From Candidatus Aenigmatarchaeota archaeon (lineage in GTDB: Archaea; Aenigmatarchaeota; Aenigmatarchaeia; QMZP01; QMZT01): a stretch of 64,000 nucleotides of DNA. Each line of letters opens with the position of its first letter. Positions within the stretch are counted from its first letter, which is position 1. The notes beneath the pieces are model-generated. The model was not told the DNA's origin. It searched no databases and worked only from the letters and a program-made list of their open reading frames with translations. The stretch covers positions 13,271-77,270 of the forward strand of contig JAZDFI010000008.1 of the NCBI GenBank assembly GCA_043808015.1, given 5' to 3'. Below are positions 24,337 through 25,554 of this stretch, in pieces. The position numbers and the translations under genes were made by a program.

Positions 24337-25554
24337 ATGGCGAACGAGGACATTCGGAAGCGACGGCTGAAAGATATAGTCGAAGAACTCGACAACTTCC
24401 GCGGGCGCCACACGGAGCTAATATCTGTTTACATACCAGCAGGATTCAACCTCTACAAGGTGGTCGAGCAGATAAACAGCGAGAAATCTACGGCCCAGAA
24501 CATAAAGTCGAAGACGGTTCGCAAGAACGTCATGTCCGCGCTGGAGCGCATAACACAACATCTCAAGCTCTACAAGCAGACGCCTCCGAATGGCCTGGTC
24601 ATTTTCGCAGGCAACATTTCCGAGCGTGAGGGCGTTGACGACATAGAAATATACGCTCTGGAGCCGCCGGAGCCGCTTAACCAGCGGCTTTACAGGTGCG
24701 ACCAAAAGTTTGTCCTTGACCCGCTGAAAGACCTCATACGCGAGCGCGAGATATTCGGCATAGTTCTTATAGACAAGTCAGAGGCCGACATCGGCCTGCT
24801 GCACGGCAAGAAGGTCAGGCCGCTCAAGCACCTGGACTCGATGGTGCCGGGCAAGACTGAAGCGGGTGGCTGGTCGCAGGCACGATACGCTCGAGTGCGC
24901 GAAGGCCTGCTGAACGACTTCATGAAAAAAGTCGGCGAAATCGCTTCCCAAAATTTCAGCGACCAGAAGGATTTGCTGGGCGTGATTGTAGGAGGACCCG
25001 GCCCGATAAAGGAAATGTTCGCGAGAGGCGATTTCCTGAGATACGACTTCAAGAATAAAATAATCACGGTAGTCGACACGTCTTATATGGGCGAATACGG
25101 CCTCGAGGAAGCGGTCAATCGTGCCGAGGAGGCGCTCAAGGAAGCGAGCGTCATGAAAGAGAAACGAATTCTCATCCGCTTTTTCAACGAGCTCGGCAAG
25201 GATTCCGGCCTGGCGGTATATGGTCTCAAAGAGACCGTGGAAGCGCTCAAATCAGGAGTCGTCGAGTTGTTAATGGTTTCAGAGCATTTGGACTGGGTTA
25301 AAGCAAACATAAAATGCCTCAATTGCGGCGAGGAAAGGGAAGTCGTAATGCTGCGGGACAAGCTGGAGAGCCTGAAATGCGAAAAGTGCAGCGAGCTCTA
25401 CGAGATTCTGGCAGAGAAAGACCTTACGGACGAGATAATCAAGATGGCCGAGGAAATGAACACGAAAGTCGAGATGGTTTCCGCCGACACGAAGGAAGGC
25501 GCGCAACTGAAAGACATGGGCGGAATCGGAGGGATTCTCAGGTATAAGGCTTAG
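24337..25554 (+). CDS. prf1: Peptide chain release factor aRF1 (eRF1 homolog) with an atypical GGQ region (GGWSQ)
   Basis: NIKS codon-recognition motif (TAQNIKSKTVR); domain-2 VPGKTEAGGWSQARYARVR aligns to canonical VPGKHKAGGQSARRFERL; C-terminal Zn ribbon CLNCG...CEKC. Confidence 0.85.
   Translation: MANEDIRKRRLKDIVEELDNFRGRHTELISVYIPAGFNLYKVVEQINSEKSTAQNIKSKTVRKNVMSALERITQHLKLYKQTPPNGLVIFAGNISEREGVDDIEIYALEPPEPLNQRLYRCDQKFVLDPLKDLIREREIFGIVLIDKSEADIGLLHGKKVRPLKHLDSMVPGKTEAGGWSQARYARVREGLLNDFMKKVGEIASQNFSDQKDLLGVIVGGPGPIKEMFARGDFLRYDFKNKIITVVDTSYMGEYGLEEAVNRAEEALKEASVMKEKRILIRFFNELGKDSGLAVYGLKETVEALKSGVVELLMVSEHLDWVKANIKCLNCGEEREVVMLRDKLESLKCEKCSELYEILAEKDLTDEIIKMAEEMNTKVEMVSADTKEGAQLKDMGGIGGILRYKA

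Follow-up and report, generated by a model that had tools for sequence, protein, structure and literature searches.

Tryptophan in place of the catalytic-loop glutamine of aRF1 in Aenigmatarchaeota: a lineage-wide and probably functional release factor variant

Introduction

Whether a class-I release factor can work without the glutamine of its catalytic Gly-Gly-Gln (GGQ) loop is the question raised by the aRF1 gene in a stretch of 64,000 nucleotides from a Candidatus Aenigmatarchaeota archaeon (assembly GCA_043808015.1, contig JAZDFI010000008.1, positions 13,271 to 77,270 of the forward strand; hereafter the window), where the loop reads Gly-Gly-Trp (GGW). The literature treats this glutamine, and its N5-methylation, as universal throughout the three domains of life, and the role of the Gln side chain has been debated for some 25 years. 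The motif has been called universally conserved (PMC5799190), and in Haloferax the methyltransferase Mtq2 modifies the Gln of the aRF1 GGQ, with Mtq2 orthologues stated for all archaeal phyla (PMC6144793).

An initial annotation, made from the DNA letters of the window, had left three explanations for the altered loop: an inactive paralogue, a sequence error or an unusual catalytic solution. The first two are refuted by the comparisons reported here, and the third survives, as far as sequences can tell. The reading that we favour, and to which we assign a probability of roughly 0.6, is that the window encodes a functional and sole class-I release factor, with Trp in place of the catalytic-loop Gln.

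An aRF1 orthologue by descent and architecture

The gene encodes 408 residues from a GTG start, and residue numbers are counted from this form; the database form, P0002, is 100% identical, has 405 residues and begins at an ATG at 24337. Against the TIGR03676 equivalog model the protein scores 476.6 bits (cut-off 234.7), residues 11-407 aligning with model positions 2-402, and the Pfam domains eRF1_1, eRF1_2 and eRF1_3 are recognised at 65.8, 124.8 and 86.1 bits; together with the NIKS stop-codon recognition motif at residues 58-61, this bears out the initial annotation's description of a protein that aligns with aRF1 over its full length. In a 69-sequence homologue alignment, from which per-residue conservation was taken, N58, I59, K60 and S61 are each at least 90% conserved, as is C124 of the YxCxxxF motif (YRCDQKF, residues 122-128), whose Y122 and F128 are invariant. 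Structure modelling, which the initial annotation had proposed for the loop as a check, gives an intact fold: the AlphaFold (AF2) model built on the same alignment has a mean predicted local distance difference test score (pLDDT) of 92.3, GGW closes the loop 171-181 and runs into helix 182-211, and the top Foldseek matches in the PDB are aRF1 (4af1) and ribosome-bound eRF1 (5lzt), with template modelling (TM) scores up to 0.81. The closest named database records are genomes of Candidatus Aenigmatarchaeota, which belongs to the DPANN phyla, assembled from lake and sediment metagenomes, the nearest at 92% protein identity. By descent and architecture, the window protein is an aRF1 orthologue; since it does not carry the GGQ motif that defines class I, it is classed as a variant and not as an ordinary member.

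With canonical aRF1 and eRF1 (4af1; 5lzt, 1dt9) it shares the three-domain fold, the NIKS and YxCxxxF motifs, the single copy and the Gly-Gly loop followed by an invariant S-x-x-R helix start, and in the tree it branches within a set of aRF1s from its own phylum that have GGQ; it differs in its third loop residue, Trp where they have N5-methylated Gln, and in the absence of Mtq2 from its genome. Pelota/Dom34 is likewise an eRF1-family protein without the catalytic Gln, but it has neither NIKS nor a conserved GG-x-S-x-x-R loop, and its N-domain is of a different, Sm-like kind. A Pelota identity was rejected, the TIGR00111 match reaching 79.9 bits (cut-off 177.65) over domains 2-3 only while NIKS and eRF1_1 are present. 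The Vms1/ANKZF1-like factors (aVLRF1, acVLRF1) come to mind because the string GGWSQ fits GGxSQ, the catalytic motif of the VLRF1 families (Burroughs and Aravind 2019; PMC6514570), and domain 2 shows a weak Pfam similarity to acVLRF1 (46.4 bits, versus 124.8 for eRF1_2); unlike these factors, the window protein has full aRF1 domains 1 and 3. A VLRF1 identity was rejected on the presence of the aRF1 decoding domain and on the Gln of the SQ pair, which is Ala in 37 of 119 GGW proteins. Laboratory GGQ mutants of RF1, RF2 and eRF1 are altered at the same position, but they are engineered, usually deleterious and set in a wild-type background, whereas the window Trp is the natural fixed state of a sole factor throughout a large clade.

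A plain substitution, real at the DNA level

Codon 182 is TGG, within the protein sequence VPGKTEAGGWSQARYARVREG. There is no indel relative to relatives reading GGQSAARF or GGQSQQRY, and Trp therefore occupies the exact position of Gln in what is a plain Q-to-W substitution. The initial annotation had correctly placed the feature at 24859-24882 and had seen Trp at the catalytic Gln position, on which the gap-free alignment agrees; its alternative of a two-residue insertion displacing the Gln falls away, and its wording that GGQ is replaced by GGWSQ is better put as GGQ replaced by GGW. Across the 69 aligned sequences G180, G181, S183 and R186 are invariant, leaving 182 as the sole variable residue of the loop.

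The substitution is shared far beyond the window genome. TGG stands at codon 182 in 23 of 23 genomes of the same family, and 83 of the 91 genomes of the order gave a match, 76 of them reading TGG and seven CAR, so that the ortholog alignment which the initial annotation had recommended finds the Trp conserved. Among the 121 best matches in a collection of 5.8 billion proteins, 119 read GGWS, one GGW followed by an intein, and one GGQS. No public sequencing run proved to contain the window, the best sharing a fraction of 0.08 of its words. Contigs of related populations from other studies span the site, and the differences listed nearby (24861, 24864 and 24876) are all synonymous. The codon keeps its standard meaning: in the PQQ-repeat gene next to aRF1 it encodes the Trp conserved in eight W[RK]F[RK]T repeats. 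All three stop codons terminate long reading frames in the window genome. The Gly-Gly-Trp feature is neither chance nor error at the DNA level, and a sequence error is refuted by the same codon in more than 100 independent assemblies.

A single copy under purifying selection

The window is part of contig 8 in a 39-contig genome assembly of 934 kb, rated 90.7% complete. Whole-genome searches with TIGR03676, PF03464 and TIGR00111 found no second eRF1-family gene beside the window aRF1, an unfiltered search of all 7006 open frames of the genome with a domain-2 hidden Markov model (HMM) of the 69 homologues returned it alone, and the bacterial RF-1 domain (PF00472) was not found in the genome. The next match to the domain-2 HMM, a weak one on C7, is replication factor C and was rejected as a release factor. 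The genome search that the initial annotation had called for thus yielded neither a second aRF1 nor a Pelota, and its suggestion of a degenerate duplicate beside a canonical aRF1 does not hold. The single-contig genomes of two relatives, G325 (1.05 Mb) and G304, carry exactly one aRF1 each, in the GGW form.

G325 also carries a Pelota-like gene, as do four of four congeners of the window genome; the separate Pelota of the relatives has about 345 residues, and GGQ, sought in the Pelota-like proteins of four relatives, was found in none. In the 90.7%-complete window assembly neither Pelota nor Pth2 (PF01981) was detected, which may reflect an assembly gap.

Within the genus, the ratio of nonsynonymous to synonymous substitution rates (dN/dS) of aRF1 is 0.05-0.09, and the gene is under strong purifying selection. 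An inactive paralogue is refuted by this ratio, by the single eRF1-family gene and by the otherwise intact motifs and fold. In one member of the family the aRF1 gene (G021:C150:14715-15935, L011) contains an in-frame TGA, either a sequencing error or a real break.

Recurrent replacement of the glutamine across the phylum

Residue 182 was read in 371 genomes of the phylum with the pattern P-G-K-x3-G-G-X-S, supplemented by about 100 fetched genes; f1-f6 denote the families of the window's own order. Gln occupies the position in f7-f16, f25-f32, f35, f37, f39 and f40, and Trp in f1-f4, f6, most of f5, nearly all of f18, f22, f24 and one sampled genome of f33. Met is found in f19 and much of f21, Tyr in one genus of f21, Phe in f17 and Ala in one f18 genome, so that non-Q residues (M, Y, F, W and one A) span f17-f22, f24 and f33 outside the order, with the codons ATG, TAY and TTY in sister lineages. 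Among the representatives of 50%-identity clusters nearest the query, 82 have Q, 11 W, seven M, three F and two E.

An aRF1 tree computed without the loop columns places the non-Q genomes in one 77-row clade (Shimodaira-Hasegawa-like approximate likelihood ratio test, 84), the GGW genome G203 (f24) being the sole exception, and implies at least 10 changes of the residue-182 state among the phylum genomes. When cluster representatives are included (173 rows) there are still at least 10 changes between Q and non-Q, and GGW appears outside the window clade, beside an Altiarchaeales sequence and beside other Q-state representatives. On the residues read, replacement at 182 is recurrent and strongly biased to large hydrophobic residues, a pattern more suggestive of selection for some property than of decay.

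Further non-Gln aRF1-like proteins lie outside the window clade: P0219 and P0245 (GGE), P0148, P0124 and P0163 (GGF), and P0196, P0216 and P0240 (GGW). The two GGE proteins may be paralogues, and the database lists P0245 under an assembly of the bacterium [Eubacterium] cellulosolvens, where its contig is probably a contaminant. Inteins sit exactly between X and S of GGXS in a large fraction of the aRF1 genes of DPANN (Cys1 ... His-Asn|Ser+1; 134-573 residues, many with a LAGLIDADG endonuclease). These inteins follow Q, W, M or F alike and are exemplified by L048, L052, L062/L063 and L055-L057 and by proteins P0122, P0088 and P0124-P0146; the window gene has none.

Loss of the methyltransferase Mtq2

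Mtq2 was sought in the 371 genomes with TIGR00537, the model of archaeal HemK-like proteins. Full-length matches of about 200 residues, scoring 98-196 bits, occur in Q-state genomes only. Inside the order, true Mtq2 with the NPPY motif was found only among the seven GGQ genomes, in five of them (G038, G321, G320, G029 and G328, whose proteins score 103-153 bits against each other); in G324, another Q-state genome, there is a partial TIGR00537 match of 92.6 bits, over the cut-off, and no Mtq2 was found in Q-state G331, a genome 58% complete. Ten of the best-scoring matches from W- and M-state genomes were examined: none has NPPY, and they cluster with a paralogue found as an additional gene in Q-state genomes. 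The best TIGR00537 match of the window genome has E=1.4e-9, and a tblastn search of that genome with the G038 Mtq2 returned nothing at E<=0.01. To judge from these matches, the GGW genomes, that of the window included, hold only Mtq2 paralogues.

The link runs one way, as some Q-state genomes are also without Mtq2, for example most of genus g49. Since the Q-state lineages of the order keep Mtq2, an ancestral Gln with several origins of Trp appears more likely there than a regain of Gln.

An altered peptidyl-transferase centre

The 23S ribosomal RNA (rRNA) gene of the same genome lies 23 kb downstream of the aRF1 gene and was compared with the Rfam archaeal large-subunit (LSU) model by cmscan alignment. 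Two strands of the peptidyl-transferase centre (PTC), the site where a GGW loop has to act, depart from the consensus at conserved positions (Table 1): the core of the second reads UCUCCGCCGUCGG where the archaeal consensus has ACcUCGAUGUCgG, and further PTC changes lie in GGGUUAAA and GAGCCAG. In what we take to be the E. coli numbering, the first strand carries A2448G, C2452U and A2453G, the second A2497U, C2499U, U2500C, A2503C and U2504C, and the further changes are presumably U2586A, G2588A and A2600C. The hairpin between the two strands, which we assign to helix 89, holds a 195-nt insertion at a site where the model has 2 nt; in relatives the same hairpin has from 25 to more than 600 nt.

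All 51 23S genes found in the order carry the variant core CCGCCGUCGG, and UCUCCGCCGUCGG is present in all but G029, where it starts with C. The variant core is shared by the Q-state genomes G038, G321 and G029, position 2503 has lost its A to C or U nearly throughout the phylum, and C2452U with A2453G occurs in Q and non-Q families alike. An rRNA change that tracks the Q/W state was rejected, as the variant strands are also present in Q-state genomes of the order and in many Q-state families, and base-pair covariation between 2453 and 2499 or between 2448 and 2500 was not upheld across families. Because Q and non-Q lineages share the variant, the altered PTC is a phylum-wide background and not a marker of GGW.

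In many relatives the 23S sequence departs from the consensus at catalytic-core positions, directly behind GGGGAUA and directly behind AGCUGGGUU; the loci concerned are L149, L151, L152, L157, L165, L166 and L174 (G065, G072, G078, G097, G150, G182 and G231) and L152, L154, L156, L161, L163, L166, L173 and L176. From their sequences, these departures resemble rRNA introns or insertions into functional sites. Extra 23S fragments with the canonical PTC strand CGAUGUCGG stand beside the phylum-type one in G036:C42, G036:C78, G168:C26 and G198:C9, and are likely contaminant contigs in the bins.

Sites that vary with residue 182

Within aRF1, the strongest co-variation with the loss of Gln182 is at residue 239, which is Tyr in 84% of non-Q sequences versus 0 of 26 Q-state sequences; Q184 is present in 85% versus 12%, and Y187 in 92% versus 27%. 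The GGY lineages, notably, are without Y239. At 184, 187 and 239 the direction is consistent and not significant, and as it comes from only four independent contrasts, the co-variation is a lead and not a result.

Gene neighbourhood

The names of the genes around aRF1 come from reading their translations (Table 1). No tRNA gene was found in the window with ARAGORN.

Table 1. Coordinates of the release factor gene, its motifs, its neighbours and the 23S rRNA features in the window
Feature	Position	Strand	Details
PQQ-repeat protein	22902-24254	+	Upstream of aRF1; eight-bladed, W[RK]F[RK]T
aRF1 gene	24328..25554	+	Class-I release factor orthologue; 408 aa, GTG start at 24328
NIKS motif	24499..24510	+	aa 58-61
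YxCxxxF motif	24691..24711	+	aa 122-128
GGX loop	24865..24879	+	G180 G181 W182 S183 Q184; codons GGT GGC TGG TCG CAG
Codon 182	24871-24873	+	TGG
Y239	25042..25044	+	Strongest co-variation with Gln182 loss
Membrane protein	25551-26066	-	Downstream, convergent; has PSGH and SR...H, as PAP2 phosphatases typically do; 4-base overlap between its end and the aRF1 stop
Ribosomal protein uL3	26105-27106	-	Beyond the PAP2-like gene
23S rRNA gene	48693..51828	+	Same genome as aRF1
PTC central-loop strand	51158..51171	+	GGGGGUAAUGGAGU; Rfam archaeal consensus gGGGAUAACaGagu
195-nt insertion	51191..51385	+	Hairpin between the two PTC strands
Second PTC strand	51401..51416	+	GCUUCUCCGCCGUCGG; consensus gcuACcUCGAUGUCgG
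Third PTC strand region	51484-51510	+	

How a tryptophan loop may work

In published structures, hydrolysis is catalysed by a backbone conformation that only glycines allow and by the main-chain amide of the Gln (PMC6742477); the side chain packs, N5-methylation brings further van der Waals contacts to U2506, A2451 and nucleotide 2452, and the side-chain carbonyl helps to coordinate the water (PMC5799190). Carried over to the window protein, this suggests that after stop-codon recognition the GGX loop would still enter the PTC and that hydrolysis would be driven by that same backbone conformation and by the main-chain NH at the third position, as in bacterial release factors. The side chain would mainly pack the pocket of A2451, nucleotide 2452 and U2506, and N5-methylation of Gln would improve that same packing. 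Trp, Met, Phe and Tyr all retain the main-chain NH and offer more hydrophobic surface than methyl-Gln, so that any of them could provide large, genetically encoded hydrophobic packing that requires no modification enzyme, an economy that would fit a genome below 1 Mb. The water-holding carbonyl would be given up, or its role taken over by one of the candidates Q184, Y239 and the altered rRNA pocket. With G180, G181, S183 and R186 invariant, loss of the catalytic role is not expected, and the GGW aRF1 is probably competent in catalysis.

Several points weigh against a functional Trp loop in a sole factor. The loss of the carbonyl is its weak point, for Trp cannot coordinate water as the Gln carbonyl does, and in published in-vivo work with yeast and E. 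coli substitutions of this Gln are reportedly not tolerated. With the genome 90.7% complete, it is only the analogy with the single-contig relatives that rules out a second factor in the missing sequence. The backbone of the aRF1 tree inside the order is without support. All sequences come from metagenome-assembled genomes (MAGs) of uncultured organisms. The main uncertainty is biochemical.

Alternative explanations

A glutamine could still serve if its place had shifted by two residues and Q184 of GGWSQ acted, as in the GGxSQ described as the catalytic motif of VLRF1 (PMC6514570). The frequency of Q at 184 in the two states (85% of non-Q, 12% of Q-state sequences) speaks for such a shift, as does its same direction in all four independent contrasts; we nevertheless regard it as decidedly unlikely, given that the contrast test is not significant, that GGQSQ is found in normal aRF1s too, and that the loop lacks the lengthening which is a VLRF1 feature (PMC6514570). 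Moreover, the 37 of 119 GGW proteins that read GGWSA include L013, L014 and L016 from the window's own family, and with Ala at 184 in so many the idea cannot be general. The answer might instead lie in the ribosome, a remodelled PTC having freed hydrolysis from the third residue so that residue 182 only fills space and the change in the release factor follows that in the rRNA. The non-canonical PTC strands of the window and of all 51 23S genes found in the order are consistent with this, as are the near phylum-wide non-A at 2503, the C2452U and A2453G pair in most families, Q and non-Q, and the repeated origin of the phylum's non-Q states within one 77-row clade (bar G203, f24). The link is not one-to-one: G038, G321 and G029, all Q-state, have exactly the rRNA variant of the order, the whole Q-state families f7-f16 and f27-f30 share the variant strands of the M, Y and W families, and GGW also occurs in sequences nearest to lineages other than those of the rRNA comparison. 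As an account in its own right it seems unlikely; it is compatible with the best explanation, to which it would add.

The protein might also be non-catalytic, a Pelota-like stop-codon binder or ribosome-splitting adaptor, with an unrecognised protein hydrolysing the peptidyl-tRNA. The defining GGQ is indeed absent, DPANN genomes are rich in proteins of unknown function, and the failure to find Pth2 and Pelota in the assembly would point to an unusual rescue and release toolkit. We consider this very improbable in view of the genome searches, which found no other eRF1-like or RF-1-like domain, the invariance of G180, G181, S183 and R186 in the loop, the restriction of the replacements to W, M, F and Y, which are not random, and the use of all three stop codons. 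Hardly any credence can be given to a sequencing or assembly artefact, or to a recoding in which editing or a changed code turns this TGG into Gln: only the oddity itself speaks for either, and against them stand the identical codon in more than 100 independent assemblies, the ATG, TAY and TTY codons at the site in sister lineages, the conserved Trp that TGG encodes in the eight PQQ-repeat motifs next door, and the loss of Mtq2 along with the Gln.

Returning to a functional factor with Trp in the loop, the altered PTC may have been permissive for the loss of Gln. A possible but doubtful extension is that termination follows a different chemistry in Aenigmatarchaeota and perhaps other DPANN, in which a PTC remodelled at 2452, 2453, 2499, 2500 and 2503 (and at 2504 in the order) made methyl-Gln dispensable, with repeated convergent replacement by W, M, F or Y and the discarding of Mtq2; the new residue may lie in the cleft of the A site much as the side chain of an aminoacyl group does. 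If true, ribosome and release factor would be co-evolving at the catalytic core.

Significance and conclusions

No publication was found on a GGW release factor, on termination in Aenigmatarchaeota, on natural loss of the GGQ glutamine in a sole factor, on the co-loss of Mtq2 or on the non-canonical PTC of the phylum, subscription journals being outside the scope of the search. Within the genomes compared, a whole order and sister families appear to live with Trp, Met, Tyr or Phe in their only release factor and without Mtq2, and GGW emerges as a lineage-wide trait under purifying selection that is probably functional.

For annotation, such genes should be called neither pseudogenes nor Pelota, and an absence of Mtq2 can be genuine. 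The phylum is furthermore flagged as one with an atypical ribosomal active site, and its GGW factors, together with their GGQ cousins of the same order, are supplied as concrete sequences for comparison. As the Q-to-W substitution is real, order-wide and accompanied by the loss of Mtq2, these archaea offer a natural experiment on the purpose of the glutamine, that is, on whether its side chain is a catalyst, a water selector or mere packing.

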